Source of the DNA: a virus
Lineage: Duplodnaviria; Caudoviricetes
IMG/VR virus record: IMGVR_UViG_3300032799_000186
Coordinates: 1-63,662 of that record
Direction: 5' to 3' (one strand)
Length of the DNA: 63,662 nt
Position numbers and translations under genes: made by a program. Of this stretch, positions 2 through 56,734 are shown one piece after another. Every line of letters begins with the position of its first letter. Within the stretch, counting starts at the first letter, position 1. The notes below the pieces were generated by a model. That model was not told the origin of the DNA. It made no database searches and saw only the letters and a list, made by a program, of their open reading frames with translations.

Positions 2-3000
2 CTCCGAGATCGGAATGTCTGGAATCAGTACCTGGCTCTCCAGAAGAAATTCAAGGCCCGGTTCGATGGGGAGCGCAAGACGTGGTACATCCCCAAAAAC
101 GAGATGCCCTTTTTTGATTTCGATAAGTATCGGTCGGAAATGGAGGCCATTGGTCTGGAGGTTGAGGATCTTCCAGAAAAGCTGATGCGGGTCGCAGATC
201 CCAAGGGTCCATCCGACTCCCCCGGAGAATCCCATGTTCAAACCCACCCGATGACGGTTGAGCAGGCCATCAACGGGATCAAGACTCGCCGGCTCGATAG
301 CACGGTGGTGCTGACCCGTCGGCCGGACGGGGTGTTCGCTTTTTATACCCCCTACACCGACAAGCCGAAGTTTGAAAAAATCCGGGAATTGTTCAGCAAC
401 AAGACTGGGCAGCTCACGGGGATCTCCAAGTTCAACGAATCAGAGCACTCTCGGGACACCCATGAAATAGATTTGGCCGAGGAAGCTCTGGACAAATTGA
501 AGGCCATGTTTCCCGAGTGGGATTTCATCGTCGAGGGGCTTCGGGAAGGCCGTATCGAGCGGGATCAGGAGATTGCCGAGTCCCAGCTTCCCATTCCAGA
601 AGTTGCTGCGAAGATCAACCCGAAGTTCAAGTTGCTCCCTTACCAGAACGAAGGGGTTCGTTTCATCGACAAGGGGGAGGGGAACGCCATCATTGGGGAT
701 GAGATGGGTCTGGGTAAGACTCTCCAGGCCTTGGCTTGGGGGGCTATGCGGGGAAAGAAGATCCTGGTAGTTTGCCCGAAGGTGGTACGCCGAAACTGGC
801 TCCACGAAGCTACCAAGTTTTTTCCGGACTACTTCAAGGGCCACGAGTTGATGTCCAAGGATCTGCGGGCGGGCAAAATCCCTGACCTGGCCAACGTCAC
901 CATCGCCACCATAAACTATGAGGCGCTGGACAAGTTCAAAGACGTGATCGAAAAGGCTGGGTTCGATACCCTTGTGATCGATGAAAGCCACCGTGTAAAA
1001 AATCCCAAAGCTAAGCAGACCCAGGCCGTGCTCAAATTGGCCGAAGGGATGAAGCACCACATCCTACTTTCTGGAACGGCCATCAAGAACAAAAAGGAAG
1101 AGCTGTTCACCCAGTTGGCCATCGTGGCTCCGAATCAGTTCTCTCTGGCGAACCTTCGGTTCGGAACCATTGGTGGAGTTTGGCAGGGCATGCGGAAGGT
1201 GTACCTGGCCCGGCAGAAGAACAAGGTGCTGAAGGATCTGCCCGAAAAGTCCACTACCCAGGTGAGGGTCGATGTGCCGAACGCTCCCGACCTCACGGGC
1301 ATGTCCAGCATCGGGGACGTGTCCAAGATTCGGGGGCAAGTTGCTCTGGCCAAGGTGCCGGCCACCGCAGAGATGGTCAACGAGATTTTGGCATCTTCCG
1401 ATTCCAAGATCCTGGTGTTCACGGAGTCGGTGGCAGCGGCCAAGAGTTTGGCGGAGAAGTTTGGGGACAAGGCCATTCTCCATGGGGGCTGGGTGAGGGA
1501 TGAGGCCCGGGAAATATCCGTAGAAGAGTGGCAGCACAAGGATGAGCAGGGTAATTTCACGAGCCCCAAGCGGGTGTTCGTTACCACCCGGCCCTCTATG
1601 GCCGTGGGGGCGACCCTGACGGCAGCCGACAAGGTGGTGTTCAACGATCTGCCTTGGACGGCAGCGGACGTGCGCCAGGCCGAAGATAGGGCTCACCGAA
1701 TTGGCCAGAAGAAAAACGTCAACGTCTACTGGATTCAGGCGGATGGGAACGCCTTCGATGAGTCGGTGGCCACCATCTTGTTCCGGAAATACGAGCTGGG
1801 GCAGAAGGTCAACCAGGGCAAGCAACTCACCCCACAGGAGCGGGAGTGGATGGAAGCTGACATGACCGATGCGGAGGTCCTGGCTCACATCCGGGGGGCG
1901 TCAGCCGGCCCCCAGGCAATCGAGTCCACCTCCCCCCCGGTTACCCCCTTGACCAAGGCAACCCCCTTGAAGAAGTCTATGACCATGGCTGAGCGGGAAG
2001 ATCGGAAACAGGTAGCTCGGGAGCAGGAAGAGAAGGGTGACTTGCGGGTGGCGGCCACCTTGCCGTTGCTGGCCCACGCCGGAGACAACCCCAAGGAGCT
2101 GGAGAAGCGGGTGCGCGGCCAGCTCCACAAGTTGCGGGTCCGGAACGATTGGCGGACGGAACTTCTGGAATCGATCATGGGCGACCTGGCGGCGTTCAGG
2201 TACGCTCAGGACTCAGGCGAGATGAATGACCTGCCCATGTACCTGCACGAGCACCTGGTCACCGGTGGGGATCGGGCGGAAAAGTCTCTGGGGTCGATGT
2301 GGTCAGATCCGGAGTTCTCGGAGAGCGTTCCAGAAATGCCCTTCGATGAGACTGATGCCCTCTTGAAGTCCGAAGGCTGGATCCCCCTGGACGAAGAACT
2401 GGGGGACATTCTCTGGAAGTCCGAGCGCCCCCACAAGTACATCCGGCGGGTGCCCTACACCGACAACTTGGGGGTGCATAAGTATCGGTATTATTACAGG
2501 GAAAGCGCATCGGCCCGGGGTGCCCGTGCCGGCGAAGAGGTTACCCTGGGAGAGCACACGGCGCACATCAAGCACGTGGACGAAAGCGGTGCCGTGACCA
2601 TGGAGATCGGGGGAGAGGAAAAAACGGTCAACCACAACGAGTGGCACCAGATGATGGCCCACCACTACGGCGAGGGCTACTACCAGCACGTTGAGCACCG
2701 AGCCATTCAAGCCGTCAACGCGGTCCTTCGGAACGTCCCAGGGGACCTTCTGGAAGAGTTGAAGGGCGACGACTCGGCTCGGATGAACGTGCTGAAAACC
2801 CGGGTGCCAGAGGTCTACGCCAAACTCCAGGCGGCCTTCCAGCGGGTAGGGGTGGATGCCTTCCAGGCCAAGCAGATCATCGGGCACACCATGGAGCGCC
2901 GGGGCTGGGAAGCCGAGGCGCGGGCGGCGGTCATCGGGGCGGTGCTCTCCCCAGAAGGCGCCACGATAGCCAAGAACCACAGGCAGATTGTCGCAGGCGC

Positions 3001-6000
3001 TGAGAACCTGGCCGGCGGGATGAAGGTGGAAGCCAAGCACGTGGCGGCGGCCATCGACCTGCGGCGCCCCAGGTTTGAGGGGGACAACTTTGGCCTGAAG
3101 GTGACGGACATCGCCAAAAAGGCCGAGACCGAGCTGACCAAGCTCCAGCATCTTTTGCACGCGGCCAAGACCGAGGGTGGGACCCACGAGGCCCTGATGG
3201 CGCAGGCCCTGGCGTTTACCTCCACGACTTTGACCCAGCTCAACATGCTGGCGACGGCTTACCCGGGCATGCGGGACAAGCTGCTCGACCCGATGCGCCG
3301 GACGATGATGGAAGTGCCATCCATGGCTCCCAGGTCGGAGCCTACGGCCGAGGGGTCGGTGGCGACCTTGTTCGTGGCCGGTGAAGGTGGGAAGCCCCGG
3401 GCGCTGAAGGCGCGGTATCGGTTGATGGAAGCCAAGGATGTGATTCCCTCCCACGACCCAGAGTCTTTCCAGCCCAACGAGAAGTACCCAACGGGGGTTC
3501 AGGAGCGGGCCTATCACCGGGACAAGGATGAGCAGCAAAAGGTGATTCGGAACGCTACCCGGATGAACGCGGCTTTCCTGATCAACACCAACCCGGACGC
3601 CGTGAACGGCCCGCCCATTGTGACCTCGGACGGGGTGGTCTTGGGTGGTAACAGCCGCACCATGTCGATGCAAAGGGCGTTCAAGACCCAGCCCGACCAG
3701 GCCAAGACCCTGAAGGACTACTTGCGGGATCATGCCTCCGAAGTGGGGCTGACGGCCTACGACGTGGACGCCATGGAGAGCCCGATCTTGGTTCGGATGG
3801 TGGACCTGGAGGACAAGACTCCGAAGGCTTTGCGGACCATGGTCCGGCAGATGAATGAGAACTTTACCCAGGCTTTGGACCCCCGGACTTACCAGGTGGC
3901 GCTCGGGCGCCGGCTGGATACCGAGGCCCTGAATGCCTTGTCAAGCAACATGGTCGAGGATGAGAGCTTGAACGATTTCTTGGCTACCGGGCGGTCCAAG
4001 GTTTTCGTGGATCACCTGTCCAGGGTGGGGGTCATCGACGAGCGGAACAGTAACCAGTACATCAAAAAGGGCACCCGGCAGTTGAACGAAGATGGCAAGG
4101 TTCTGGTGTCCAGAATCTTGGTGGGCAACGTGGTGGACGATGCGGACGTGCTGTCCGACACCCCGCCGAAGTTGTTGACCAGCTTGGCCGGTTGTGTGCC
4201 GTACATGCTCCAGGCCAAGTCCTCTGGACCGGAGTTTGACCTGTCCAACGACCTCCAGACGGCTCTCCATGCCTACAATTATGCGAGGGATATGGCGGAC
4301 GCGGGGAAGGGTCCAGTCCTGGACGCCAACATGCCCGACTGGAGTTTCAATCAGCTATTCGCCCAGCAAAACGTGTTCGGTGAGATTCACCCGGTCACCA
4401 AGAGCGAGCGGGCGATGATCTTGCTGGAGTCCATGATCCGGAAGTCTGGCCCCAGGCAGATGACCCGGATCTTCCGGGAGTACACTAAGGCGGCGTCGTT
4501 GAATCGAACGGATCAGATGTCTCTGGCTGGGCCGGCATTGACCCCCGCGCAGGTGCTGACGTTCTCCATCGAGGCGGCCGGGAAGCGGGACAAGGCCGAG
4601 GCTGAAGCTAAGGCCCAGGCCAAGGCAAAGGCTAAAGCCGGAACAGAGCAGGAAGGATTGTTCAAGGCCCAGCCACAGGCCGGGCCGTTTATCGGACCCA
4701 AGGGTGGGAAGTACGCGGATCCCGAGTTGACCATTTCTTGGCGAGAGCGCACCGGGCGCCAGCCGGCAGCTCAGAAACCGATCCCGACACCTCGGGCACC
4801 GGCGGGTTCTCAGCCTCCAGCCAAGCAACCGATAACGGATGCGCCGGCGGAGGTTCACCAGCAGTACCAGCGGGAGGAAGCGAAAACTCGGGGGGGCCAG
4901 CAAGCGACCGAGAAGCCAAAGACCAAGCGGAACTGGGTAGATCACAAGCCGGGTTTGCCCAAGCAGACCATCGACAAGTACCGGATGGATGAGCCCGATG
5001 GGACGCATTCCTACGTGATGTCTCGGAAGCCGATTCACGACAAGATCCTAGAAGCGTTCATGGGTGGGAAACAACCGGTTCCCAAGGATCGGAAAAAAAC
5101 TGCTTTCGTGATGATGGGTGGACCGGCCAGCGGCAAAACTACTTTGGCAAAACTAATCGCCGGGAAGAAGTTTGGGAAGTTCATAAACGTCAACCCGGAC
5201 GATGTTCGGGAGATGCTGCCTGAATACCAGGAAGCCATTGACTTCAAGGACGATAGTGGCAAGCAGGTTTCGGCTAAGGACGCATCTGCCATGACCCACG
5301 AAGAGGCGTCCGACATCGCAGGTGAAGTTTACAACCGGGCCATTGATGGGAATTTCAATCTTGTGTTTGACGGTACAGGCAAGAACGTGGACAAGCATCG
5401 TGCTCGGGTGGCGTCTTTGAAGGATCATGGCTACCACGTAGTTTTGCTGATGCCTCACCTGGATCTGGAAACGGCCCTGGTGCGGGCTGGAGATCGAGCG
5501 GAGCACAGGGGGCGCACAGTACCTGAGCCTATGATGCGGGAAGCCTACCCCAAGATGCCTGGAAATTTTGAATCGGTAGCCCGAACGGCCGATGAGTTCC
5601 ACCTCTATCACAGTGGAGGCCCTGTTACCAAGCCCCCACAGATTGTCTGGAGCGGTGGAGAGGGCAAGAAGGATAAGGTTCACCACCCAGAGCTATTCCA
5701 GCAATTCCAGGAAGAGGCCAAGCGGTCTCGGGTACTCCAGGGTCGGAAGGAAAACCAAGTGGATCTGGGGCCACCGAAGGGTCCTGTGTCCAGGCATGAG
5801 GCTGGCCTGTCCTACAAGAACCTGAAAAAATCTGGGCCGGTCAGGAGCAAGCTGCCTCCCTTCATGTCCGGCGATGACATTTTGGCGAGATTGCAAGAAA
5901 CCAGCGTGGCCGATGCTGAGGACGATGAGGTGGATCTGAAGGGGACCAAGAAGGCCATGTTCGACCGGGATGTCGGGGCCGACACCCCCATGGGGGATGA

Positions 6001-7006
6001 TTTTGACCCAGACAACCGGCGGCTGAAGTACGCCAAGGAAAAGCCCACCATGCCGCCGAAGCAACCCCTGTCAAAGGCGGCCGGGCAAGGCCCCTTTATT
6101 GGCCCCAAGGGCGGGAAGTGGGCCAATCCAGAAATGACCATTCCTTGGGAGGAAGGCACAGGCCAGGGGCGGCCTCCGGCGGCCCAGGAGCAACCCTCTG
6201 CACCTAGACCCCCGGCTCAGCCCCAGCCACAGGCAGCAGGTAACCTGGCCCCCCAGACCCCGGCCCAGGCCCAGGCGCACCAGGCTACGGGGGATTTGGT
6301 TCCTTCTGCCCAAGGCCAGGCCCAGCAAGAAAAGCCAGCTCAGCCCCAGTCGGGGCACTCCGAGCCCAGTGAGGCGGAGATGCTCCAGCGCCTGGACGGT
6401 CAACTTCCAGGGGGCAAGACGACCCAGGAGCACTTCCAGATTGCCAAGGATTTTCTGGCTCAGCACAGGGCGGCGTTCGGGGCAACGATGAAAGCCATGC
6501 AGAACCTGGCCGGTGAGACGGGGGAGGTGTCGGCGCGGGTCAAAGACTTAGGCAGCGCCCTGAACAAGCTCGTAAGAAAACCCAAGTACGGAACGGCGGA
6601 CAAGCTCCAGGATGGGATGGGCGCTAGAATCCAGCACCAAACCGTCTCTCAGGTATGGGAGACGGTGAAGAAGGCCAAGTCCCAGTTCAAAGTGGTGACT
6701 GAGGATAACTACCTCGACACGCCCCTGGGGGACTATCGAAGCTACCACCTGATTCTGGAAGGCCCCACCGGGCTCCAGTTCGAGTTGCAGGTCCGTACCC
6801 ACAACCAGAACATCTTCGGGGACTGGGCGCACAAGGGCTACAAGCCCGAGACTGCGGAGCAGGAGAAGTACAAAGATCACCCAGACGTGAAGCGGTACTC
6901 CAAAGAGATGTCCGAGTATTTCTGGGAGGTAGACAACGAGCAAACACCCAAGTTCACCCCCGAATGCCCTCCGGTGGTTCAACAGGTCTTTGGGTGCATG
7001 GCGTAG
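2..7006 (+). CDS. Giant polyvalent protein, 5'-truncated: SNF2-family helicase/ATPase, DdrB-like ParB domain, zeta-toxin-like P-loop kinase, RelA/SpoT-type synthetase
   Basis: The frame is open from nt 2 (LRDRNVW...RFDGERKTWYIP), so the start is probably upstream. SNF2 motifs LLPYQ, GDEMGLGKT, DESH, LSGTAIKN, QAEDRAHRIGQ (~630-1740). DdrB-ParB-like ARYRLMEA..IPSHDP..QERAY..GPPIV..GGNSRT (~3400-3870). Zeta-like MGGPASGKT..INVNPDD..FDGTG (~5100-5610). Synthetase motifs RVK, QDGMGARI, YRSYH, ELQVRT (~6530-6840). Confidence 0.88.
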   Translation, partial: LRDRNVWNQYLALQKKFKARFDGERKTWYIPKNEMPFFDFDKYRSEMEAIGLEVEDLPEKLMRVADPKGPSDSPGESHVQTHPMTVEQAINGIKTRRLDSTVVLTRRPDGVFAFYTPYTDKPKFEKIRELFSNKTGQLTGISKFNESEHSRDTHEIDLAEEALDKLKAMFPEWDFIVEGLREGRIERDQEIAESQLPIPEVAAKINPKFKLLPYQNEGVRFIDKGEGNAIIGDEMGLGKTLQALAWGAMRGKKILVVCPKVVRRNWLHEATKFFPDYFKGHELMSKDLRAGKIPDLANVTIATINYEALDKFKDVIEKAGFDTLVIDESHRVKNPKAKQTQAVLKLAEGMKHHILLSGTAIKNKKEELFTQLAIVAPNQFSLANLRFGTIGGVWQGMRKVYLARQKNKVLKDLPEKSTTQVRVDVPNAPDLTGMSSIGDVSKIRGQVALAKVPATAEMVNEILASSDSKILVFTESVAAAKSLAEKFGDKAILHGGWVRDEAREISVEEWQHKDEQGNFTSPKRVFVTTRPSMAVGATLTAADKVVFNDLPWTAADVRQAEDRAHRIGQKKNVNVYWIQADGNAFDESVATILFRKYELGQKVNQGKQLTPQEREWMEADMTDAEVLAHIRGASAGPQAIESTSPPVTPLTKATPLKKSMTMAEREDRKQVAREQEEKGDLRVAATLPLLAHAGDNPKELEKRVRGQLHKLRVRNDWRTELLESIMGDLAAFRYAQDSGEMNDLPMYLHEHLVTGGDRAEKSLGSMWSDPEFSESVPEMPFDETDALLKSEGWIPLDEELGDILWKSERPHKYIRRVPYTDNLGVHKYRYYYRESASARGARAGEEVTLGEHTAHIKHVDESGAVTMEIGGEEKTVNHNEWHQMMAHHYGEGYYQHVEHRAIQAVNAVLRNVPGDLLEELKGDDSARMNVLKTRVPEVYAKLQAAFQRVGVDAFQAKQIIGHTMERRGWEAEARAAVIGAVLSPEGATIAKNHRQIVAGAENLAGGMKVEAKHVAAAIDLRRPRFEGDNFGLKVTDIAKKAETELTKLQHLLHAAKTEGGTHEALMAQALAFTSTTLTQLNMLATAYPGMRDKLLDPMRRTMMEVPSMAPRSEPTAEGSVATLFVAGEGGKPRALKARYRLMEAKDVIPSHDPESFQPNEKYPTGVQERAYHRDKDEQQKVIRNATRMNAAFLINTNPDAVNGPPIVTSDGVVLGGNSRTMSMQRAFKTQPDQAKTLKDYLRDHASEVGLTAYDVDAMESPILVRMVDLEDKTPKALRTMVRQMNENFTQALDPRTYQVALGRRLDTEALNALSSNMVEDESLNDFLATGRSKVFVDHLSRVGVIDERNSNQYIKKGTRQLNEDGKVLVSRILVGNVVDDADVLSDTPPKLLTSLAGCVPYMLQAKSSGPEFDLSNDLQTALHAYNYARDMADAGKGPVLDANMPDWSFNQLFAQQNVFGEIHPVTKSERAMILLESMIRKSGPRQMTRIFREYTKAASLNRTDQMSLAGPALTPAQVLTFSIEAAGKRDKAEAEAKAQAKAKAKAGTEQEGLFKAQPQAGPFIGPKGGKYADPELTISWRERTGRQPAAQKPIPTPRAPAGSQPPAKQPITDAPAEVHQQYQREEAKTRGGQQATEKPKTKRNWVDHKPGLPKQTIDKYRMDEPDGTHSYVMSRKPIHDKILEAFMGGKQPVPKDRKKTAFVMMGGPASGKTTLAKLIAGKKFGKFINVNPDDVREMLPEYQEAIDFKDDSGKQVSAKDASAMTHEEASDIAGEVYNRAIDGNFNLVFDGTGKNVDKHRARVASLKDHGYHVVLLMPHLDLETALVRAGDRAEHRGRTVPEPMMREAYPKMPGNFESVARTADEFHLYHSGGPVTKPPQIVWSGGEGKKDKVHHPELFQQFQEEAKRSRVLQGRKENQVDLGPPKGPVSRHEAGLSYKNLKKSGPVRSKLPPFMSGDDILARLQETSVADAEDDEVDLKGTKKAMFDRDVGADTPMGDDFDPDNRRLKYAKEKPTMPPKQPLSKAAGQGPFIGPKGGKWANPEMTIPWEEGTGQGRPPAAQEQPSAPRPPAQPQPQAAGNLAPQTPAQAQAHQATGDLVPSAQGQAQQEKPAQPQSGHSEPSEAEMLQRLDGQLPGGKTTQEHFQIAKDFLAQHRAAFGATMKAMQNLAGETGEVSARVKDLGSALNKLVRKPKYGTADKLQDGMGARIQHQTVSQVWETVKKAKSQFKVVTEDNYLDTPLGDYRSYHLILEGPTGLQFELQVRTHNQNIFGDWAHKGYKPETAEQEKYKDHPDVKRYSKEMSEYFWEVDNEQTPKFTPECPPVVQQVFGCMA
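4682..4741 (+). repeat. 20-aa tag copy 1 (GPFIGPKGGKYADPELTISW)
   Basis: Read directly. Preceded by LFKA (4658-4669) and followed by a P/Q/A-rich linker and the zeta-like domain. Confidence 0.95.
6089..6148 (+). repeat. 20-aa tag copy 2 (GPFIGPKGGKWANPEMTIPW)
   Basis: Preceded by LSKA (6068-6079) and followed by a P/Q/A-rich linker and the RelA/SpoT domain. Confidence 0.95.
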
Positions 7007-7015
7007 GAGCGGATC

Positions 7016-7450
7016 ATGGCCGAAGGAAACATGCTGGACAAGATTCTGGAGGCCAAGAAACGGGTCACTCCGGAGCAGGGGTTCAACGTGGTGGGGATCG
7101 ACACCTATGAGATGCCCGGAGAAGAGCCCTTTGTCATTGGGCACTACGATACCGTGGAAGAAGCCAATGCGATGGTGACGGCCTACAAACAGAGCTACCC
7201 TGACACGCCGGTTTACGTGTACGGCGTTCAGGCGGCTGAGCAGGAAGTCCAGAAAAGTGTTCTCCAGAAATTCCATGACTTCACAGTCCCTATCGTTCAG
7301 AGGGATACTCAGACTTATGAGCGGATCCAGAGAGTGCTCATCGCTCGGCACGGGTACGAAGAGGCCGACTTCGAAAAGGACGGAGAATTGTACGGCTGGA
7401 GTGCCAACGAATTGTTGGACCTAATCCTAGAGGACCTGCGGGGCAAGTAG
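7016..7450 (+). CDS. Hypothetical protein with an internal VQKS site
   Basis: AGGAG Shine-Dalgarno. Fills the gap between the two giant genes, and its stop abuts the next ATG. Confidence 0.75.
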   Translation: MAEGNMLDKILEAKKRVTPEQGFNVVGIDTYEMPGEEPFVIGHYDTVEEANAMVTAYKQSYPDTPVYVYGVQAAEQEVQKSVLQKFHDFTVPIVQRDTQTYERIQRVLIARHGYEEADFEKDGELYGWSANELLDLILEDLRGK

Positions 7451-10400
7451 ATGCTGTTGACACCGGAACAACTTCAGGAGATCCGCCGGATCATCCAGGA
7501 CTACCACAGTGCCTTTGTGGTCAACGTGGTCGGTCCAACGGCGGTGGCTCCAGAAATTCTGGCACGACTGAAGGCTAAGGGCCTGGTGGACATCCGGATC
7601 CAGTCCATTCAGGACGCCTACATCTACGGTCAGTTACTGGCCCACCTGGACAATCCGGCCATTGCCAGGATGACCTACACCCAGTTTCGGGACTTCATCA
7701 AGCGAAACCCCATCCCGATGACCTTGGTGGAGAAGCAAGCGGTCAAGATGGCCGAGGCCAGCGCCGGGCAGTATTGCGCCGGCTTGGGTAACCGGGTGGA
7801 CATGGCCACGGGGGCCACCCTGATCGAAGCCGATGCAGCCCTCCGAAATCAGCTCAAAGACGTGATCCGGACGGAAACGGCCGAGGCCATTTCTCGTCGG
7901 GAATCAGTCCAGAAATTGGCCAGCAACCTAGGGCACGCTACGGGGGACTGGTCCAGAGATTGGCGGCGGATCGCCAACACGGAAGTCCAGCAGGCCATGC
8001 AGACCGGCCTAGCTGACCGGTACCGGGAGGACTACGGCACGAGCGTTCGGGTGGCGAAAGTTCCGATGCCCGACGCTTGCGAGCACTGTAAACGCTTGTT
8101 CTTGGGGCCTGATGGGAAACCCAGGATCTGGAGGTTGGCTGACCTGCAAGCCTTCGGGACGAACGTCGGGCGCAAGACCCGGGACTGGGTGCCCACCGTG
8201 GGCACGGTTCACCCGCACTGCCAGTGCCAGCTCATCCGGGTTCCCAAGGGATTCGGGTTCGATGCTTTGGGGCGCATGGTGCCCGGCGGGAAACTGGGGG
8301 TCGAGGCAGACGCGGACGATTTCATGCGGTCCCTGCAACTGGAGGATGAGTTCCACAAGTCTGTCAGCTCCAATGATCTGGTGAATTTCCAGGGCATCAC
8401 GGTTCACGTCGAGAATCGAGCCGGCGAGCTTCGGCACTGGGAGAGTGCCACGGGCGAGCGCGGTATCACCCACATGCTGTGCGCCTATGGTGAAGTGGTG
8501 GGGACCAACGGGGCGGACGGGGACGGGCTTGACGTGTATCTGGGACCGGACCCCAAGGCCAACACCGTGTTCGTGGTTCACCAGCAGAATCCAGAGACTG
8601 GGGTGTACGACGAGGAGAAGGCCATGCTCGGCTTTCCCTCAGAAGAGTTCGCTCTCCAGGTCTACCGGGCGCACTTCAACAAGCCTGGGTTCGACGTGGC
8701 GGTTTCTCCGATGGGGGTCGAGCAGTTCAAGGTTTGGGCTGACGCTACCATCGCGGCGAAGGGCGAGGGCAAGAGCGAGACCATCCGGTTGGTTATTCCC
8801 CTGGAGAAGGCCCAGGCCGGTCCCTTCATCGGGCCGAGAGGTGGCAAGTGGGCTGACCCCGAGATGACCATTCACTGGGAGGATCGTCCGGAGAAGCCAG
8901 AGGCCCAGGCCCAGGAAGAACCGAGCGCGGCCCCCAGCGCAAAGCAACAGATCCCCGAGCACCTGGCCAAGCGGTTGGCTCGCCGGCAACCGGGGCATGG
9001 TGAGAAGATTGCTCTGAACAAAGAGGAGCTGGGCTTGGTTTTGGCCACGGGGAAGTATGCCCTGGTGAGCGCGGGGAAGAACCCCAACAGCCCGGAAGAT
9101 GCCAAGCTGACCCCAGCGGATTTTGCCAAGCGAACGGAACAGCTCCGGCAGCAGTTGGTGACCGACGGGTTCGCTTACTCTGACGTGGTGGGGCACTACG
9201 GGGAGATGGAAAACAGTTTCCTGGTCATGATCCACGACGCTGACCGAGAGCATGTGAGGAAGCTGGGGGAACTGTTCAACCAGGACACGATCCTCTACTC
9301 TGCGGGTGGGAAACACGAGTACCACTTCACCACCGGGCAAAAGAAAGGGCAGTACGTCAAGGGTGAGGGTCACCAGACTTTTGAGGTTGCCCCATCGGAC
9401 TATTACACGGAGTTCACTCACCCTGATGGTTCGATCACCAAGTTTTTGTTGAACCTGGACTTCGATCATGTGTTCCAGTCCGAGGTTGCGAAAGAGATAG
9501 CTCCAGAGGTTCCAGTTCAACCGGTGCCCCCCAAATCCGTTGGACGGGAGTCTCGGGATAGGCCAGCACCCGAGTGGGGTCCGGGCCGGGGGGTATGGCA
9601 CGCTGAGCGGTATTCCTTCGGGGAGAGCCCGGACGCCAAGCCGCTGGACACGATTTCAGTTGCTGACCTCCCCAAGGATTGGCTGGATCAAAACGCCTAC
9701 GATATGAGGGATGCGGTTCAGGCCAAATTTGGGAAGCTGGAAGCGCCCCCGGGGTACCAGATCATTTATCGGACAGGATCTGGCCCCAAGGGTCTGGCCA
9801 ACCGCAACGCTGGGAACTTGGAAGCGGTGGTGGATTTTGTCCGGCACTATGAGGATCGGGGCATCGAGTACGGCAACAAGATCACGGCCTACGCGGTTCG
9901 GATGCCAGAAGAGTTCGCGGACTACGAAAAGCGCAAGGGGGCTTACCTGAAAGAGGGCATGGACAAGGCCATGCCCCAGGCTGGTCCCTACATCGGTCCC
10001 CGAGGGGGGAAGTGGGCCAACCCGGAGTTGACCATTTCCTGGAAGGAGCACAAGGCACGCCAGCACGCAACAGCGGCATTGGCAGGAGGGTCATTCAACC
10101 AGGGTCACTGGCAACCACGTCCTGCCTCTGAATGGGAGGACGAAGAAGCCAAGCTCCGGGCCAAACTGACCGAGGCTCGAACGTCCGGCCTTCCTCGTTG
10201 GATGGAATTGTCCACCCCCTACTACCGCCCGGATTGGCCTCTTTCGGGGCCGGTGCAACCTGAGATGGACTTGAAGGTGGCCGAAGTAGCCATTGGTGCT
10301 GAGACCCTTGAGCATGCGGTGGCGTTCGATGGACAGGGCCGTCAACTGTTCCGGGCGACTTCAGACCAACGCGGCTACGTTCGTTTCAATGAAAAGCAGA

Positions 10401-11398
10401 TTGCGGCGTTTCGGGCTGATGGCAATGCCATTCTTTCGCACAACCACCCCACCAGCATGAGTTTCAGCGCAGAAGATATACACCTCATGGTAGCTTCCAA
10501 TCTGAAGGAAATTCGAGCCGTGGGGAAGAACGGGACGGTGTATTCCGCAACTCGGCCAAAGGGTGGTTGGAAGCAAGTACACGTGGATGAAATGGCTGTG
10601 ATTGCCAAGACAGTTTTGGAAACGGCTACCGATCTTGCCACCAGGGAGATGGATGCTATAATTTATGCTGCGGGTGGGATTCCTGGTACCGAAAATGCCA
10701 AGGGATATACTTACGAGGTGTGGCATGGAATCATCCTCGGATCACAAGAAAAAGCCCTCAAAGTCCTCTTCGACTCGTATGGTGTCGGATTCCGGAAAGA
10801 TAAAATTGTCCCCGGAGCTGCAAAAGATCGTGGACGAGGGGATAGACCTGGATCGGGAGAGCCCCGAGCCGAAGTACGGCAAGAGTTCCAGAAACCAGAA
10901 CAGCTCCAGCTCCTAGACGCGGCCGAGCGGGCCTACCGGCAGTTCAAGCAGAAGCAGCGCGGAGGTCAGGTAACGAAGTCCGATGAGCCGGGGATTGCTG
11001 CCATCGTGGCGGCCGGTAACAGCATGGCCGGTGCTCGCAACCCAGGGCGGGGGACTGCCCCCAACTTCCTGTTCAACGCCCCCATCCGGGGGCCAGCCCG
11101 GACTGACCCCCGGGTGTTCAAGGAGATGGTCGAGGACGAAAAGCGGGAAGAGGACATGGAGAATGCTAGGCGCCGCCGGCGTCGGGACCGACGGATCTAC
11201 AACGTGACCAAGCCGATCCCGGATCATGTTTTTGTTCTCCAGGCCCCGCTGGAGTGGCGGTCTTACGAGAAGATCCGGGATGGGAAGCACCTGGAGCGCC
11301 AGGCCAAGATAAAGAAGTTCGAGCGGGATAACACTGGCTTGCTGAATGAGGACCATGTGTTCATCCGCAAGTCCGAGAATGACCCGGAGGACCGATGA
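7451..11398 (+). CDS. MuF-like head morphogenesis protein fused to inorganic-pyrophosphatase-like, DUF3293-like and JAB/MPN-like domains
   Basis: MuF-type RIANTE..CEHC..HPHCQC (~7950-8230). InPase-like YGEVVGTNGADGDGLDVYLG..VVHQ..YDEEKAMLGF (~8380-8730). DUF3293-like VSAGKNP..GHYGEMENSFLV..GELFNQDTIL (~9050-9460). JAB-like EHAVAFD..HNHP..SFSAED (~10300-10560). Confidence 0.82.
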   Translation: MLLTPEQLQEIRRIIQDYHSAFVVNVVGPTAVAPEILARLKAKGLVDIRIQSIQDAYIYGQLLAHLDNPAIARMTYTQFRDFIKRNPIPMTLVEKQAVKMAEASAGQYCAGLGNRVDMATGATLIEADAALRNQLKDVIRTETAEAISRRESVQKLASNLGHATGDWSRDWRRIANTEVQQAMQTGLADRYREDYGTSVRVAKVPMPDACEHCKRLFLGPDGKPRIWRLADLQAFGTNVGRKTRDWVPTVGTVHPHCQCQLIRVPKGFGFDALGRMVPGGKLGVEADADDFMRSLQLEDEFHKSVSSNDLVNFQGITVHVENRAGELRHWESATGERGITHMLCAYGEVVGTNGADGDGLDVYLGPDPKANTVFVVHQQNPETGVYDEEKAMLGFPSEEFALQVYRAHFNKPGFDVAVSPMGVEQFKVWADATIAAKGEGKSETIRLVIPLEKAQAGPFIGPRGGKWADPEMTIHWEDRPEKPEAQAQEEPSAAPSAKQQIPEHLAKRLARRQPGHGEKIALNKEELGLVLATGKYALVSAGKNPNSPEDAKLTPADFAKRTEQLRQQLVTDGFAYSDVVGHYGEMENSFLVMIHDADREHVRKLGELFNQDTILYSAGGKHEYHFTTGQKKGQYVKGEGHQTFEVAPSDYYTEFTHPDGSITKFLLNLDFDHVFQSEVAKEIAPEVPVQPVPPKSVGRESRDRPAPEWGPGRGVWHAERYSFGESPDAKPLDTISVADLPKDWLDQNAYDMRDAVQAKFGKLEAPPGYQIIYRTGSGPKGLANRNAGNLEAVVDFVRHYEDRGIEYGNKITAYAVRMPEEFADYEKRKGAYLKEGMDKAMPQAGPYIGPRGGKWANPELTISWKEHKARQHATAALAGGSFNQGHWQPRPASEWEDEEAKLRAKLTEARTSGLPRWMELSTPYYRPDWPLSGPVQPEMDLKVAEVAIGAETLEHAVAFDGQGRQLFRATSDQRGYVRFNEKQIAAFRADGNAILSHNHPTSMSFSAEDIHLMVASNLKEIRAVGKNGTVYSATRPKGGWKQVHVDEMAVIAKTVLETATDLATREMDAIIYAAGGIPGTENAKGYTYEVWHGIILGSQEKALKVLFDSYGVGFRKDKIVPGAAKDRGRGDRPGSGEPRAEVRQEFQKPEQLQLLDAAERAYRQFKQKQRGGQVTKSDEPGIAAIVAAGNSMAGARNPGRGTAPNFLFNAPIRGPARTDPRVFKEMVEDEKREEDMENARRRRRRDRRIYNVTKPIPDHVFVLQAPLEWRSYEKIRDGKHLERQAKIKKFERDNTGLLNEDHVFIRKSENDPEDR
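8819..8878 (+). repeat. 20-aa tag copy 3 (GPFIGPRGGKWADPEMTIHW)
   Basis: Preceded by LEKA (8801-8812) and followed by a linker and the DUF3293-like domain. Confidence 0.95.
9983..10042 (+). repeat. 20-aa tag copy 4 (GPYIGPRGGKWANPELTISW)
   Basis: Preceded by MDKA (9959-9970) and followed by the JAB-like domain. Confidence 0.95.
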
Positions 11399-11858: not shown

Positions 11859-12125
11859 ATGCGCTGCCCGCACTGCAAGAACAAGCTGATCCAGCGCCAG
11901 GGGGACACTATTCGGATTCGAGCCCGAACGGTTGAAGGCCCTTTGCTCATAAAATCCGATGGGTTTCATGGCCAGTGCTTCTGGTGCAAGGCAGATGTCG
12001 TGATTCCCATGTCTCTCGGGGTGGACGTGCCGGCCGAGCGGTTTTTTCTGGGAACCCCTCCGAGTCCAGAAAAGGACTTGACGCCAATTCCAGAATCAAG
12101 TACGTTCCAGAAAGACAGCAAGTAG
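11859..12125 (+). CDS. Small zinc-ribbon protein
   Basis: CPHC...CFWC pairs. Starts 2 nt after the upstream stop. Confidence 0.7.
   Translation: MRCPHCKNKLIQRQGDTIRIRARTVEGPLLIKSDGFHGQCFWCKADVVIPMSLGVDVPAERFFLGTPPSPEKDLTPIPESSTFQKDSK
12078..12106 (+). promoter_or_regulatory. sigma70-like promoter upstream of the prohead protease
   Basis: TTGACG-17 nt-TACGTT, surrounded by TCCAGAA motifs. Confidence 0.45.
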
Positions 12126-12157
12126 AGCCCGTTTGGACTGAGTGCCAGTCCGGTTGG

Positions 12158-12200
12158 GGCAGCGTGGAAGGGAAACTTCCGGCTGCCTCTTTTGTTTTTC
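12158..12200 (+). terminator. Intrinsic terminator-like hairpin
   Basis: GGCAGC-GT-GGAAG/GGAAA/CTTCC-G-GCTGCC followed by TCTTTTGTTTTT. Confidence 0.6.
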
Positions 12201-12210
12201 TGGAGTACAG

Positions 12211-13083
12211 ATGGCCCCACGGATTCCGTTCAACTTCCAATTCGGCGTTGACGTGTTCCACAAGGCCGGAGCCCCCGATGGCAAGCGGAAGCGCATCGGG
12301 GGGATCGTGTCCACGGAGACCCCCGACAAGCAGGGCGAGATTGTGCTCCAGTCCGGACTGGACTTCGGGGAGTTCATGTCTGGCGGCTGGTTCAACGACA
12401 ACCACTCCAAAGAGACCACGGACATCGTGGGATACCCTGAGCAAGTCCAGAAATTCCAGCGGGGGGAGACCCTTCCCAGCGGTAAGAAGGCGGCCTGGAA
12501 TGGCACTTGGGTCGAGGGGTACTTGCTGGACACCGAGAAGGGCCGGCGGATGTGGGAGCTGGGGGTGGCACTCCAGAAAACGAATCGGCGGCTTGGGTTT
12601 TCGGTCGAGGGCAAGGTGGAGCGTCGGGCGGGGCCGCGCACCGTGTTCCTGAAGGATCCCCAGACCGGGCAGGGCCAGTGGGTTGGCCGCGAGATCGTGC
12701 GGGCGGCCGTCCGAAACGTGGCCGTGACCAATGCCCCGGTCCAGGCGGATTCCAAGCTGGAGATTCTGGCGAAAAGCATGATGGCCATGGAACGGCAAGG
12801 GCAAGAGGAAGATGAACGCCTGGACAAGACCCTTGCAATGGGGACGGCAACCCCTGGGCAGAAGCCGGTTGGCCCCCAGACGGGCCGTGGTGCCGGGAAG
12901 GTGCTCACCAGGCAGCACCTGGAGGAGGAAGAGCGCGATCTACTGAAGCCAACCGTGAAAAAGTCCCTGACCGATGCCGAGGCGATTCGGTATGTCCAAG
13001 CCCGGGTTTCTGGAATTAGCTGGGAGGACGCGGGACGGATTGTTCGCCTCACCCGGATTTTGAAACAGCAAAACCGCTTGTAA
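12211..13083 (+). CDS. Prohead (capsid maturation) protease
   Basis: GGAG SD before ATG 12211. IGGIVST..DKQGE..NDNH..GFSVEG..VAVTNAPV matches HK97/SPO1-type prohead proteases. Position before scaffold and MCP. Confidence 0.9.
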   Translation: MAPRIPFNFQFGVDVFHKAGAPDGKRKRIGGIVSTETPDKQGEIVLQSGLDFGEFMSGGWFNDNHSKETTDIVGYPEQVQKFQRGETLPSGKKAAWNGTWVEGYLLDTEKGRRMWELGVALQKTNRRLGFSVEGKVERRAGPRTVFLKDPQTGQGQWVGREIVRAAVRNVAVTNAPVQADSKLEILAKSMMAMERQGQEEDERLDKTLAMGTATPGQKPVGPQTGRGAGKVLTRQHLEEEERDLLKPTVKKSLTDAEAIRYVQARVSGISWEDAGRIVRLTRILKQQNRL

Positions 13084-13097
13084 AAAGGAGAAGGAAA

Positions 13098-14177
13098 ATG
13101 AGCCGAAGAATGCAGAAGGCGGATCCCCCCGCCCTGGCGGATGAGAACGAGGGATCCAACGTGAAGCCGGGCAAGGCGCCCATCGACAACGAAGAGGCCA
13201 CCGAGGGCATCAGCGAAGAGACCGGTGAGCCCCCCGACTCCGAGAAATCGGAGGACCCTGCCAGTGACTCCGATCACATCTCCCACCCCCGTCCCGAGGA
13301 AGGGGAGGGCGAGCAGCGCGGTGGCCCCGGCATGGGCAAGTCCGACGACAACGACGAGGACGATTGGGGTGGCGACGAGGAAGAAGAGGACGATGCCGAG
13401 AAGGCCGAGAACACCGAAGAGGAAGAGGGCGCCTTGACCTCCGAGGCCAAGAAGGAGCGCAACGACGAGAGCATCAAGAGCCTGACCGCCGGCGACCTCA
13501 GCAAGAGCCTGGCCCGCCTCAAGCGGTACGCGGATCGCGGCGGGAGCCAGAGCCGGAAGGATGGCCTGCTCCAGAAGGCCCAGAAGGGCCACGACCTCAG
13601 CAAGTCCGAGAGGGCCGAGCTGTTCGACCTGTTGGGCAGCAAACCCCAGGGCAAGCCTCCCTTGGCCAAGTCGGTCACCCGGGGCCTTCGGAACAACGAC
13701 GGCCTTCAGAAGGCCCTCGACGTGTCAGAGTACCTGGCCGAGCAGCACAACGAGCTGACCAAGAGCCTGGGGGTCCTGTCCACCCACATCGAGCGGTCGG
13801 ACGGTCGGCAGCACGAGTTCAACCTGGTGCTGGCCAAGGCCCTGGCCGATGTGGGCAACCTCGTGACGGCCATGGCCGAGCAGATGGACGCCTTTGGCAG
13901 CCAGGCGGTTCGCGCCCCCAAGAGCAGGGGCTTGTCGGGGTCGGCGGCGCTCCAGAAGAGCATGGCCGGCAACGAGTCCCAGGGCGATGTCCTGTCCAAG
14001 TCCCAGGTGATGGACACCCTGGAGAGCATCCTGGTAGACAACATCCAGAAGGGCGGCACGGGCATCCTGAACGGCGAGGACATCAGCACGGCGATCACCA
14101 AGTACGAGAGCTTCAACCAGATCAGCCCGGTCATGCACCAGGCGGTGATGCAGCACGTGAAGGGCAAGGCGGCTTAG
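13098..14177 (+). CDS. Putative capsid scaffold protein
   Basis: Lies between protease and MCP. Very acidic N-terminal half, helical C-terminal half, 11 [LM]xK[SA] motifs. Confidence 0.75.
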   Translation: MSRRMQKADPPALADENEGSNVKPGKAPIDNEEATEGISEETGEPPDSEKSEDPASDSDHISHPRPEEGEGEQRGGPGMGKSDDNDEDDWGGDEEEEDDAEKAENTEEEEGALTSEAKKERNDESIKSLTAGDLSKSLARLKRYADRGGSQSRKDGLLQKAQKGHDLSKSERAELFDLLGSKPQGKPPLAKSVTRGLRNNDGLQKALDVSEYLAEQHNELTKSLGVLSTHIERSDGRQHEFNLVLAKALADVGNLVTAMAEQMDAFGSQAVRAPKSRGLSGSAALQKSMAGNESQGDVLSKSQVMDTLESILVDNIQKGGTGILNGEDISTAITKYESFNQISPVMHQAVMQHVKGKAA

Positions 14178-14256
14178 GGACGAAGGAGCCAGGCAAGAGG
14201 CGCTTGCGAACGGGCACAACAAACAAAAGCCCTGACGGGCTGCAAGGAGATTGAAA

Positions 14257-15699
14257 ATGAACGGTAACATGGTGTCTTGGCAGGACTACGAAGGGATCGA
14301 CGGATTCGGATCCGCGACCCAGAGTGACGTGGACGACTTGAACAAGGCCCTGAAGGCCGGTCAGTCCATCAACCCCCCGGGCGGGACGGCGGTCGCCGGC
14401 GACGGCTTCGCGTTGCGCGTCGAGTCGCTGGAGAGAACCCTGAAGAACCTGACCTTCCGGATGGAGCACATCAAGCTGTGGAAGGCCATCAGCAAGTTGG
14501 CCGCCTACAACACCGTGGAAGAACACAACATTCTGTCCTCGTATGGTCAGAATGCGGACGCGGGCTGGATCGATGAGGGCGACTTGCCGAGCGAGGATGA
14601 CTCGACCTACGAGCGGAAGTTCGCCGTGGTCAAGTACATCGGCACCGTCCGTCGGGTGACTCACGTGATGAGCCTGGTTCGCCCGGCCCACCAGAACGTG
14701 ATCGCGCAGGAAACTGTCAATGGAACCATGCACTTACTCCGTGTCCTGGAGAAGTCCCTGTTCAAGGCGCGGAGCGACCTGTCCGCCCTCCAGTTCGACG
14801 GGATCGAGAAGCTGTTGCTGGACAGCGCCCCGGCCGTCAACATCATCGACATGCGCGGCCGTCCCCTCAGCGAGGACGTGCTGACCGACGGCGCCCTGGT
14901 CATCTCGGACGCCCCGAACTACGGCCAGGCGACCGACCTGTTCGTGAACCCCCGCGTCAAGGCCGACCTGGTGAAGGCGTTCTTCCCCAAGGAGCGGTAC
15001 GACCTGTTCAACAAGAAAACCGACGGGCTCGTGGGCCTGGACATCGCGGGCTTCACCTCGCCGGCGGGCGACGTGCGCTTCCAGAGCGACGTGTTCATCG
15101 ACGACGGCGGCGGCGTGCCGGCGGCGGCGGTGGGCGATGTCACCAAGATCCCCGCCACCCCGAACCAGAGCACCCCGGCCACCTCCCCCGGGCCGGAAGC
15201 CCTGAGCTTGTTCGGTGCCGACGATGCCGGTGACTACTACTACCGGGTGGTCGCCTGCAATCGGTTCGGCAAGTCCGCCCCCAAGAGCATCGAAGTGGGC
15301 GTTGTCAACGTGTCGGCGCTCGACAAGGTGATTTTCGGCATGACCCCGGCCACCGCCGTGACGGTGAGCTGGTACGAGGTCTACCGGACCAAGAAGAACG
15401 CCGCCGCCGCGACCGCCCGGCTCATCCTCCGCGTGCCGAACGCGGGCGGGGCTGGGGAGCAGCTCATCAACGACTACAACAACTGGTTGCCCGGTTGCAC
15501 CACCGCGTACCTGCTCCAGCAGAACGCGGAGGCGGTGAGCTTCAAGCAGCTCGCCCCGATGGTCAAGATCCCGTTGGCCACCGTGGACTCCAGCATTCGC
15601 TGGATGCAGTTGATCTACGGCGTCCCGGTCATCTACGCCTACGGGCGTCACGTCCTCTACACGAACGTGGGCCGGGCCGAAGGAAGCGTGGGCGTCTAG
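14257..15699 (+). CDS. Major capsid protein (Herelleviridae-like)
   Basis: AGGAG SD before ATG 14257. LNKALKAG..ALRVESLERTLK, YNTVEE, EGDLP..DSTYER, LQFDG resemble Twort/A511 capsid proteins. Strong codon bias. Confidence 0.93.
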   Translation: MNGNMVSWQDYEGIDGFGSATQSDVDDLNKALKAGQSINPPGGTAVAGDGFALRVESLERTLKNLTFRMEHIKLWKAISKLAAYNTVEEHNILSSYGQNADAGWIDEGDLPSEDDSTYERKFAVVKYIGTVRRVTHVMSLVRPAHQNVIAQETVNGTMHLLRVLEKSLFKARSDLSALQFDGIEKLLLDSAPAVNIIDMRGRPLSEDVLTDGALVISDAPNYGQATDLFVNPRVKADLVKAFFPKERYDLFNKKTDGLVGLDIAGFTSPAGDVRFQSDVFIDDGGGVPAAAVGDVTKIPATPNQSTPATSPGPEALSLFGADDAGDYYYRVVACNRFGKSAPKSIEVGVVNVSALDKVIFGMTPATAVTVSWYEVYRTKKNAAAATARLILRVPNAGGAGEQLINDYNNWLPGCTTAYLLQQNAEAVSFKQLAPMVKIPLATVDSSIRWMQLIYGVPVIYAYGRHVLYTNVGRAEGSVGV

Positions 15700-54070: not shown

Positions 54071-54255
54071 ACAACCCACGGTGATCAGATCAGAGATCAT
54101 TTTGATTTTGATCTAGTAATCTATATGAGCTAAAGCACGGGATCAAAAGTCAAGTGGTTGATATTGCAAGAGAAAATGGAAATTGAGAAATGAGTAGAAA
54201 GGCTAGATAAAAGGTTGATTATACAAAGAAATTTGTACTTGAAAATGTGCTAAAA

Positions 54256-55878: not shown

Positions 55879-55885
55879 GTTGAGG
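55839..55885 (+). promoter_or_regulatory. 47-bp promoter-like element, copy 2
   Basis: AAAAAAGCTGGACCAA-N9-AACGGGGTTATCTAGGTTGAGG. Overlaps the helicase stop codon. Confidence 0.55.
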
Positions 55886-56077
55886 CAAACGATAGTCCCC
55901 TTCCGGGTGGCTGGGCGGAGTAACCCCCCCCCCTACTTCGACCGCCCCCGGAAGGGGACCTTGAAATCAAAGGGTTTCCTTGAGGACTTAGCTGTGCTAC
56001 AGAGAAACTTGCTTGCCTTGAGTAGCAGGCGCCACGCCCCGTAGATCAACGTCCCTTGGTCTACGGGGCCTTCTTTT
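55880..56077 (+). ncRNA. Candidate structured non-coding RNA B ending in a terminator
   Basis: 13-bp stem 55895-55907/55947-55959 enclosing inner stems and a C10 loop, further small hairpins, and a terminal terminator hairpin. Confidence 0.5.
56036..56077 (+). terminator. Intrinsic terminator
   Basis: GCCCCGTAGATCAA/CGTCCC/TTGGTCTACGGGGC followed by CTTCTTTT. Confidence 0.7.
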
Positions 56078-56087
56078 GGGAGGATCC

Positions 56088-56719: not shown

Positions 56720-56734
56720 CCAAAGGGACGAAAC

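Follow-up and report, generated by a model that had tools for sequence, protein, structure and literature searches.

A near-invariant peptide behind candidate head-protease sites in the polyvalent proteins of uncultured phages with an SPO1-like head

Two giant genes and a repeated peptide

The IMG/VR virus record IMGVR_UViG_3300032799_000186, a linear stretch of 63,662 bases that is referred to here at its full length as the window (completeness 59% by the CheckV estimate), begins with a 16-kb region in which all genes lie on the + strand: a giant open reading frame (ORF) termed gene A, an ORF of 144 amino acids (aa), a second giant ORF termed gene B, two small ORFs, and the genes for a head maturation protease, a scaffolding protein and a major capsid protein (MCP). 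Gene A (2..7006), which is open at its 5' end, encodes 2334 aa with a DUF5710-like element, an SNF2 helicase, an unknown region, a ddrB-ParB domain, a second unknown region, a Zeta kinase and a RelA/SpoT domain. Gene B (7451..11398) encodes 1315 aa with a MuF-like region, an InPase domain, a DUF3293 or S-adenosylmethionine (SAM) lyase module and a JAB-like module. Both have the traits of polyvalent proteins, namely several unrelated enzymatic domains in one polypeptide (SNF2, ddrB-ParB, Zeta and RelA_SpoT in A; InPase, SAM-lyase/DUF3293 and JAB-like in B) and a position among virion genes. The present analysis concerns a short peptide, hereafter the tag, that precedes the last two modules of each protein, and the candidate protease site that stands just before it.

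The pattern GP[FY]IGP[KR]GGK[WY]A[DN]PE[LM]TIxW has exactly four matches in a six-frame regular-expression scan of the whole window, at 4682, 6089, 8819 and 9983, and a profile recovers the same four copies, all on the + strand. In gene A, tag 1 (GPFIGPKGGKYADPELTISW, 4682..4741), before the Zeta kinase, follows a predicted protease site LFK|A (4658..4669; the bar marks the predicted cut) with four residues between the A and the GP of the tag, and tag 2 (GPFIGPKGGKWANPEMTIPW, 6089..6148), before RelA/SpoT, follows LSK|A (6068..6079) with three. In gene B, tag 3 (GPFIGPRGGKWADPEMTIHW, 8819..8878), between InPase and the DUF3293/SAM lyase module, follows LEK|A (8801..8812) with two intervening residues, and tag 4 (GPYIGPRGGKWANPELTISW, 9983..10042), before the JAB-like module, follows MDK|A (9959..9970) with four; these sites too are on the + strand. 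Long stretches rich in Pro, Gln and Ala lie between each tag and its enzyme. The closest relative of gene A, at locus L025 (65-82% identical), has a regular tag before its SNF2 domain, about 100 residues upstream of the DUF5710-like element, and a fifth tag therefore probably lies just past the 5' end of the window.

Across the four tag stretches of 40 residues, 17 columns are invariant, and a profile made from the four copies scores 79-95 bits at each of them. Over the 20 core codons, any two copies share 16-17 residues, 7-10 of which are written with different synonymous codons; the corresponding DNA is 73-80% identical, differs mostly at third positions and has longest exact shared runs of 8-14 nt. 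The synonymous differences and the short shared runs rule out a recent duplication of DNA and indicate that the tag peptide is under selection. Chance or low-complexity repetition is likewise ruled out, by the profile score at each copy and by the recurrence of the motif in hundreds of unrelated contigs. The initial annotation had placed four tags at these positions, each 2-4 residues after a hydrophobic-x-K-A site, and had held that the peptide rather than the DNA is conserved; the six-frame scan found no copy elsewhere in the window, and the spacing and the codon comparison agree with the other two statements.

Coupling of the tag to a putative head-protease site

Two sets of tags were collected beyond the window. 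Back-translated patterns retrieved 121 stretches from IMG/VR, of which 111 were confirmed and the best 80 kept, corresponding to 77 loci, and a second set comprises 426 tags in 195 proteins. In the second set, [LIVMF]xK[AGS] with its K located 3-8 residues before the tag aromatic accompanies 385 of the 426 tags (90%), compared with 2.7% in shuffled sequences. Similarly, of 138 non-redundant tags in the IMG/VR loci, 126 have a K followed by A, G or S at a distance of 3-8 residues upstream of the aromatic. Of the 128 sites scored two positions before K (P3), 91 have L there, and 119 have one of L, F, I, M or V. A further site lies 7-18 residues upstream of the first in 103 of 329 tags, where about 17 were expected; this would be expected of cutting sites and not of an element of a fold. 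An association of the tag with a preceding K[SA] in homologues, which the initial annotation had named beforehand as support for its reading and whose absence it would have taken as a refutation, is therefore present well beyond the window.

Over the full length of the 195 tag proteins, [LIVMF]xK[AGS] shows a modest enrichment (1857 sites, about 1082 expected), and 1464 of these sites are not beside a tag. In the window, tagless sites coincide with domain borders or lie close to them: directly behind the helicase of gene A are PLTK|A and PLKK|S (1949-1975), a candidate site EFHK|S (8351-8362, + strand; aa 301-304 of gene B) lies between the MuF-like region and InPase, and VTK|S and IRK|S occur in the C-terminal tail of gene B (10970-10981 and 11363-11374).

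The same motif characterizes the head genes downstream of gene B. The head maturation protease, the predicted cutter (12142..13083, + strand, ATG at 12211), matches phrog_1028 (E 3.7e-29) and is 34% identical to the gp3.2 protease of SPO1 (E 1e-31), the comparison of the protease family being with SPO1 only. The scaffolding protein (13098..14177, +; phrog_15087, E 7.6e-5) has 12 [LIVMF]xK[AGS] sites where 1.5 were expected, a count that none of 300 shuffles reached. The MCP is SPO1-like (14251..15699, +; phrog_752, E 5.6e-85), with 37-38% identity to the MCPs of SPO1, CP-51 and other Herelleviridae and matches in 774 phage records. Site counts were extended to 26 loci around related capsid genes. 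There, 24 distinct scaffold proteins contain 276 sites against 36.2 expected (about 8-fold), the observed count being reached by none of 300 shuffles in any of them, and 25 proteases contain 163 against 36.8 (about 4-fold); towards its C-terminus, the window protease has LAK|S and VKK|S as candidate sites of self-cleavage. The 26 capsid proteins are not enriched overall (73 sites, 42.4 expected); nevertheless, all 27 aligned MCPs have L-x-K-A in the same column, some 30 residues into the protein, and in the window MCP, which is among them, it forms the candidate maturation site LNK|A (14338..14349, +). In SPO1 itself the scaffold has 11 sites (1.4 expected) and the protease eight (1.6 expected), and the capsid protein gp6.1 reads D-A-L-N-K|A-L-E. 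Scaffold sites and tag-proximal sites further agree in acidic residues at P5-P4, L at P3 in 63-67% and a small residue at P1', the order of preference at P1' being S > A > G in scaffolds and A > G > S before tags.

A site-rich scaffold, sites in the tail of the protease and a single conserved site near the MCP N-terminus are the classic signature of a prohead protease, as known from T4. Given the enrichment in scaffolds, the conservation at the MCP N-terminus and the presence in SPO1, [LIVMF]xK[AGS] is very probably the cutting site of the head protease. These counts also provide independent support for the initial annotation, which had read K[SA] as a protease site from the window alone.

The tag is placed asymmetrically in its proteins. 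In 53 of 194, no more than 30 residues separate the N-terminus from the first tag, while the last tag never comes within 30 residues of the C-terminus (0 of 194; smallest distance 48). For the ORFs read from the loci, the gap between the first start codon and the first tag is 4-24 residues in 20 of 85 cases, and all 72 last tags keep at least 110 residues from the ORF end. Leaders before N-terminal tags are 5-28 residues long, with the site at their end; a few proteins open M-S-A-G-P-F, without any site. Around 328 tags, the three 10-residue bins upstream hold 0.96, 0.28 and 0.16 sites per tag, and the downstream bins over residues 0-79 hold 0-0.027 each, where chance would give about 0.045. 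This arrangement fits a tag that belongs to what follows it. The earlier proposal that the tag would be retained on the downstream effector is in keeping with its never C-terminal and often N-terminal placement and with the depletion of sites after it. P0084 provides a stand-alone cassette in 459 aa (leader, site, tag and Zeta domain), of which the window has an internal version.

The modules behind the tag are diverse, as had been anticipated: 132 non-redundant post-tag stretches fall into 54 sequence clusters, and the same module families occur in differing orders and hosts. About one quarter of the 132 match Pfam (InPase 7, Zeta 5, Topoisom_I 3, DarA_C 3, ART-PolyVal 2, SAM lyase 2 and others). 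The expected confinement to head regions was also observed, as 69 of the 77 tag loci have a homologue of portal, MuF, protease, scaffold or MCP within the fetched flank of about 6 kb (portal 60, MuF-like 45, protease 13, capsid protein 7). The tag genes do not always adjoin the capsid gene: several long contigs have 10-20 kb between the two.

When 1.84 billion cluster representatives were searched with a profile of 134 non-redundant tags, 800 proteins matched at E<=0.001, 506 at <=1e-10 and 42 at <=1e-30, the top ones carrying 2-5 tags. A word-indexed search gave 91 proteins, none of which has a name that is informative about the tag; their Pfam domains include InPase, ddrB-ParB, SAM lyase, GGDEF, PAPS reductase, topoisomerase IB, RelA_SpoT, Zeta, GNAT, ART-PolyVal, DarA_C, SNF2 and Hint/intein. 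No family was matched in Pfam-A (four stretches of 47 residues, E up to 10) or NCBIfam (seven such stretches, E up to 10). Nor did the tag match the LPD models that Pfam took from Iyer et al. 2017; the supplementary LPD alignments of that paper might cover it. In tblastn searches with two natural tags of 30 residues, the BLAST low-complexity filter being on, 50,697 records of cultured phages gave nothing beyond one chance match at E 6, and 72,556 plasmids gave no match. In 185,579 species genomes the tag occurs at only eight loci, all in metagenome-assembled genomes (MAGs) of Lentisphaeria, Myxococcales, Acidimicrobiia, Sedimentisphaerales and Omnitrophota. One of these loci, L110 (CP070713.1, 557,936-574,001), lies within a 3.5-Mb Myxococcales MAG chromosome and may represent an integrated relative and a hint at the host. 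Strings of the tag motif, sought in a literature of 8.4 million papers, matched only two of them, both on unrelated human proteins. The initial annotation knew of no description of the tag, and the null Pfam, NCBIfam and literature searches agree with this.

AlphaFold2, run on the 134-row alignment, models the tag as a small beta hairpin around a P-[RK]-G-G-K turn; the predicted local distance difference test (pLDDT) score is 87-90 for the core of 20 residues and about 60 in the L-x-K lead-in. Foldseek of this model against the PDB returned nothing at E 0.001 or better, and the impression of a WW-domain-like fold gained no support from it. A predicted complex of the MCP with the tag scored 0.00 against a mark of 0.32, with controls not run, and carries no weight either way. 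The P-R/K-G-G-K segment of the tag (e.g. window 8834-8848) resembles the R-G-G end of ubiquitin-like proteins, and a JAB-like module is present in the same protein. The idea that R-G-G is a JAB cutting site was set aside as unlikely, since JAB-like modules occur in only three of the 77 loci and about a dozen fetched proteins, and since the G-G lies inside a confidently folded hairpin. The scaffold N-terminus (about 130 residues, window 13098-13500) is extremely acidic and of low complexity, and in many relatives the tag is followed by Lys-rich runs; an electrostatic contact between scaffold and cargo is conceivable.

Cargo modules and neighbouring genes

In gene A, a weak DUF5710-like element with a K-T-W-Y-I-P motif (44-103, +; aa 15-34; E 0.0026, below the cut-off), again a short hairpin-like stretch that opens a module, precedes the SNF2-type helicase (524..1855, +; aa 175-618; phrog_62 E 6.1e-74, SNF2-rel_dom E 1.5e-25, Helicase_C E 2.8e-8). 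These are followed by the ddrB-like ParB domain (3401..3802, +; aa 1134-1267; PF18763, E 6.1e-19), the Zeta-toxin-like kinase (5069..5590, +; aa 1690-1863; PF06414, E 3.8e-27) and the RelA/SpoT-type nucleotidyltransferase (6536..6844, +; aa 2179-2281; PF04607, E 1.1e-12). In gene B, the MuF-like region (7862..8233, +; aa 138-261) matches PF04233 (Phage_Mu_F) weakly, at E 0.0021 and 19.2 bits where the cut-off is 29.6. Its place after the portal fits a minor head protein of the MuF or SPP1 gp7 type, and the N-terminal 300 aa of gene B have homologues in 45 of the 77 tag loci. The InPase domain (8378..8740, +; aa 310-430; PF18823, E 1.8e-31) and the DUF3293 or S-AdoMet lyase-like module (9092..9388, +; aa 548-646; PF23780 E 4e-7, PF11697 E 6.3e-6) follow. 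The Pfam matches confirm the zeta-like kinase, RelA/SpoT and DUF3293-like domains that had been annotated behind tags and, among the domains annotated upstream, SNF2 with Helicase_C, ddrB-ParB and InPase, while MuF remains a weak assignment.

The fourth tagged module, a JAB/MPN-like domain (10211..10900, +; aa 921-1150), has no sequence match in Pfam, NCBIfam or the PDB. Its AlphaFold2 model (pLDDT 83, from an 11-row alignment) gives best Foldseek matches that are all JAB/MPN proteins (JAMM1, RadC, CSN5 and Rpn11 homologues), though these are weak (E 0.01-0.04, TM score 0.2-0.5, none at 0.001 or better). In the 11 homologues E34, H77, N78, H79, P80, S86 and D89 are invariant, giving E...HNHP...S..D; the canonical JAB/JAMM metal site has the pattern E...HxH...S..D. 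A JAB-like identity for this module, as first annotated, is therefore reasonable but not firm. A built-in processing peptidase is frequent in polyvalent proteins and not obligatory, and neither giant protein has an MPTase-PolyVal or prohead-protease match in Pfam at E up to 0.1.

At locus L025 a portal gene (phrog_12, E 1.4e-58) lies directly upstream of the gene A relative, and the window and L025 together give the gene order portal, gene A, gene B, protease, scaffold, MCP. Portal and protease genes adjoin each other in SPO1; with the portal upstream as at L025 and the protease downstream, the two giant genes occupy the portal-protease slot. The 144-aa ORF between the giant genes (window 7016-7450) has one site, VQK|S, and homologues in eight of the 77 tag loci, and matches no PHROG, Pfam or NCBIfam family. 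In the gap between gene B and the protease, an 88-aa ORF (window 11859-12125) with two C-x-x-C pairs resembles a zinc ribbon; it has homologues in five of the 77 tag loci and no family match except a weak one to DUF3797. A near-identical phage protein, P0005, is 98.6% identical to gene B over aa 210-1315 and about 300 residues longer. The extra stretch lies inside the MuF-like part and matches Hint_2 and Intein_splicing of Pfam, which indicates an intein in this head gene that the window phage does not have. Further along the window are a tail sheath gene (31004..33319) and, at the far end (54247-58781), a DNA helicase (phrog_16) and a DnaB-like helicase (phrog_19), so that the record spans a head module, a tail and a replication module.

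Proposed role and comparison with known systems

The reading we lean towards, and consider somewhat probable, is that the repeats consist of a conserved mini-domain of about 22 residues and a head-protease-type L-x-K|[A/G/S] site 0-5 residues before it, which together mark the N-terminal border of each packaged cargo module in an uncultured myovirus lineage with an SPO1-like head. The giant proteins A and B, encoded between the portal and protease genes, would be built into the procapsid, protein B probably entering by its MuF-like part. The head maturation protease would then degrade the scaffold, trim the capsid protein at L-x-K| and cut the giant proteins at the same sites, setting free separate enzymes: the SNF2 helicase, the ParB-like nuclease, the Zeta kinase, RelA/SpoT, InPase, and the SAM-lyase-like and JAB-like modules. 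On each freed enzyme the tag would sit at the new N-terminus or only a few residues in, and a linker without cutting sites would join the two. Site, tag, linker and enzyme would form a portable cassette, found inside polyproteins or opening separately encoded proteins, and the tag would serve all cargo alike as a handle, holding or placing it in the head or carrying it out along with the DNA. What the sequences show is the motif with its spread, direction and gene context, its association with the site, and the site's enrichment in head-assembly proteins; that the proteins are packaged and cut, and that the tag is kept and works as a handle, is inferred. Three predictions of the capsid-cargo polyprotein reading in the initial annotation (head context, site and varied modules) hold in the larger sample, which supports that reading in part; the handle may serve packaging, DNA binding or ejection.

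A bolder form of this proposal, which is offered tentatively and which we think rather doubtful, would make the 22-residue peptide a universal portable cargo address of one large uncultured phage lineage, such that anything placed behind L-x-K|A, tag and linker is loaded, cut free by the head protease, held and delivered with the DNA.

Several points weigh against the border-marking reading. No measured MCP cleavage site for an SPO1-like phage was found in the literature searched, so the L-x-K| specificity rests on enrichment statistics and on the analogy with T4. About 10% of tags have no site. The residues before K are semi-conserved in two styles, h-h-V-I-P-L-x-K and S-M-D-x-I-x-x-L-x-x-F-x-K, and could belong to a folded unit instead of a free cutting site. 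The hydrophobic fraction is 0.21 in the first 40 post-tag residues and 0.26 further on, and the depletion of sites after the tag could come partly from this linker composition. Further, a handle for loading only would not need to be repeated within one polyprotein, and the lineage is uncultured, known from its nucleotide sequences alone.

In one alternative the tag acts only before cleavage, as a capsid-targeting signal that docks cassettes to the scaffold core, the capsid interior, the portal or the protease, and stays on the product merely because the cut is N-terminal to it, with no later role. T4 and P1 provide established cases of portable N-terminal targeting peptides, 10-30 residues long (PMC9024508). 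The cassette also occurs on separately encoded proteins, each of which would need its own entry signal, and tags occur only in a single head lineage, whose portal, MuF, protease and MCP genes are related. However, the T4 signal precedes the cut and is removed, whereas the present one follows the predicted cut and the next 100 or so residues are poor in sites, as though its attachment had to be preserved. SPO1-type phages have the same head genes, yet the tag was not found there. In addition, the scaffolds of tag-bearing phages are only 27-47% identical and the tag is far more conserved. A purely pre-cleavage role is thus unlikely, though it keeps an appreciable share of the probability. More generally, near-invariance across phages that have diverged so far would point to a partner that does not vary, for instance DNA or some strongly conserved surface.

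An invariant ligand such as DNA would also account for the near-invariance if the giant proteins were never cleaved and the tag with its L-x-K lead-in were a small nucleic-acid-binding or structural spacer domain between the enzymes. The tag is predicted to fold alone, its P-[RK]-G-G-K turn is basic and often precedes the Lys-rich stretches, and the semi-conserved residues before K would have a place in such a domain. Nevertheless, the lead-in is the very motif with which the scaffolds are peppered and by which the MCP N-terminus is marked, tagless copies of it lie in the upstream position noted above (103 of 329 cases), its distance from the tag varies from three to eight residues, and AlphaFold2 is unsure of it. 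The strict avoidance of the C-terminus is unexpected for a spacer as well, and we regard uncleaved proteins with a spacer domain as rather improbable.

A role after injection would have the tag act as an address to a conserved host structure (DNA, membrane or a hub protein) or as a refolding aid for the threaded cargo. A retained tag that is flexibly linked to enzymes with very different targets would suit such a role, as would its near-invariance although the MAG labels hint at hosts from several phyla, and the new N-terminal A, G or S would be stabilizing under the bacterial N-end rule. These labels are weak evidence of hosts, however, no likeness to a known host-binding motif or fold was found in Pfam, NCBIfam or by Foldseek against the PDB, and the data do not separate a role in the host from one in the capsid; action in the host is distinctly improbable on this evidence. 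Finally, it is very improbable that the tag is mainly a recombination or demarcation junction for swapping effector modules between phages, in the manner of the conserved motifs before variable polymorphic-toxin domains (VENN in CdiA, DPxGL in Rhs): the 54 module clusters, the small share with a Pfam family and the shuffled module orders across hosts would suit a junction, but conservation is at the peptide level, the copies differ at third positions and their short shared runs are a poor substrate for homologous recombination, so selection on the protein is needed.

If the border-marking reading is correct, it supplies a sequence-level rule for phage-injected proteins, in which any ORF or module headed by the cassette is virion cargo. 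About three quarters of the 132 modules have no Pfam family, and the tag thus flags a large set of unexplored candidate host-takeover and anti-defence enzymes. Under the bolder form, the phage would run its injected effectors as a plug-in system, and the roughly one hundred modules of unknown kind would become a catalogue of new early-acting anti-host or anti-defence enzymes. The loading and separation of polyvalent proteins would become testable, with one protease, one site and one peptide defined. A short portable signal for loading and release would also be of practical interest for protein delivery by phage particles, as explored with T4 and P1.

Several elements of this proposal are already known from earlier reports, namely packaged polyvalent proteins, their presumed processing, maturation of ejection proteins by the prohead protease and portable capsid-targeting peptides (PMC5512222, PMC9024508, PMC10052503). 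No earlier description was found of one near-invariant peptide common to dozens of cargo families, of its repetition inside polyproteins, of its coupling to the putative site of a trans-acting head protease, or of its location on the retained side of the predicted cut. Polyvalent proteins as defined by Iyer et al. 2017 (PMC5512222) are similarly giant products of late or virion genes that combine SNF2, DdrB-ParB, InPase, Zeta, RelA/SpoT, ART, JAB and MuF, and in the sections available they are predicted to be packaged, injected and processed into units. Processing is attributed there to a built-in MPTase or a C-terminal assemblin-like peptidase, whereas the window proteins have no MPTase domain, and those sections describe neither an inter-module tag nor a site for a trans-acting head protease (PMC5512222). 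According to a preprint, a polyvalent protein has been detected in phi24B virions (10.64898/2026.04.10.717836).

The MuF polymorphic toxins of Jamet et al. 2017 (PMC5576092) likewise have MuF fused to variable C-terminal effectors, e.g. RelA/SpoT-like ones. In contrast to gene B, they join one MuF to one toxin and come from prophages of cultured bacteria, while the tag was not found in cultured phage records; the main text of that report does not mention a conserved motif, cleavage, linker or junction (PMC5576092).

Phage P1 packages a giant anti-restriction protein in its head, and the 30 residues at the N-terminus of DarB are enough to load a reporter (PMC9024508), a source which also reports no consensus among the Dar N-termini; here, one near-invariant peptide heads all modules. 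DarA_C and ddrB-ParB domains are also found behind tags, and cleavage of the P1 capsid protein takes place at E120|S121 instead of after K. The cleavage motif of the ejection proteins of the giant phages phiKZ and SPN3US is A/S/G-x-E. In these phages the prohead protease cuts many of the proteins inside the head during maturation, and these are ejected into the cell, which resembles the scheme proposed here; they are separate gene products with removed propeptides, and the available parts of the reports give no shared retained tag (PMC10052503, PMC7411985).

T4 is also among the closest known parallels: its internal proteins are injected cargo loaded by a short N-terminal capsid-targeting sequence (CTS) that can be transferred to foreign proteins, and such sequences are reported for IPIII of T4 and DarB of P1 (PMC9024508). 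The gp21 protease of T4 cuts after I/L-x-E (PMC12991175), and this hydrophobic-x-charged site, I/L-x-E|, is of the same kind as the L-x-K| predicted here. The two systems differ in the fate and number of the signal. The T4 CTS stands before the cut and is removed, whereas in the window the peptide stands after the predicted cut and should be kept, and it is repeated within polyproteins, with one consensus across dozens of cargo families.

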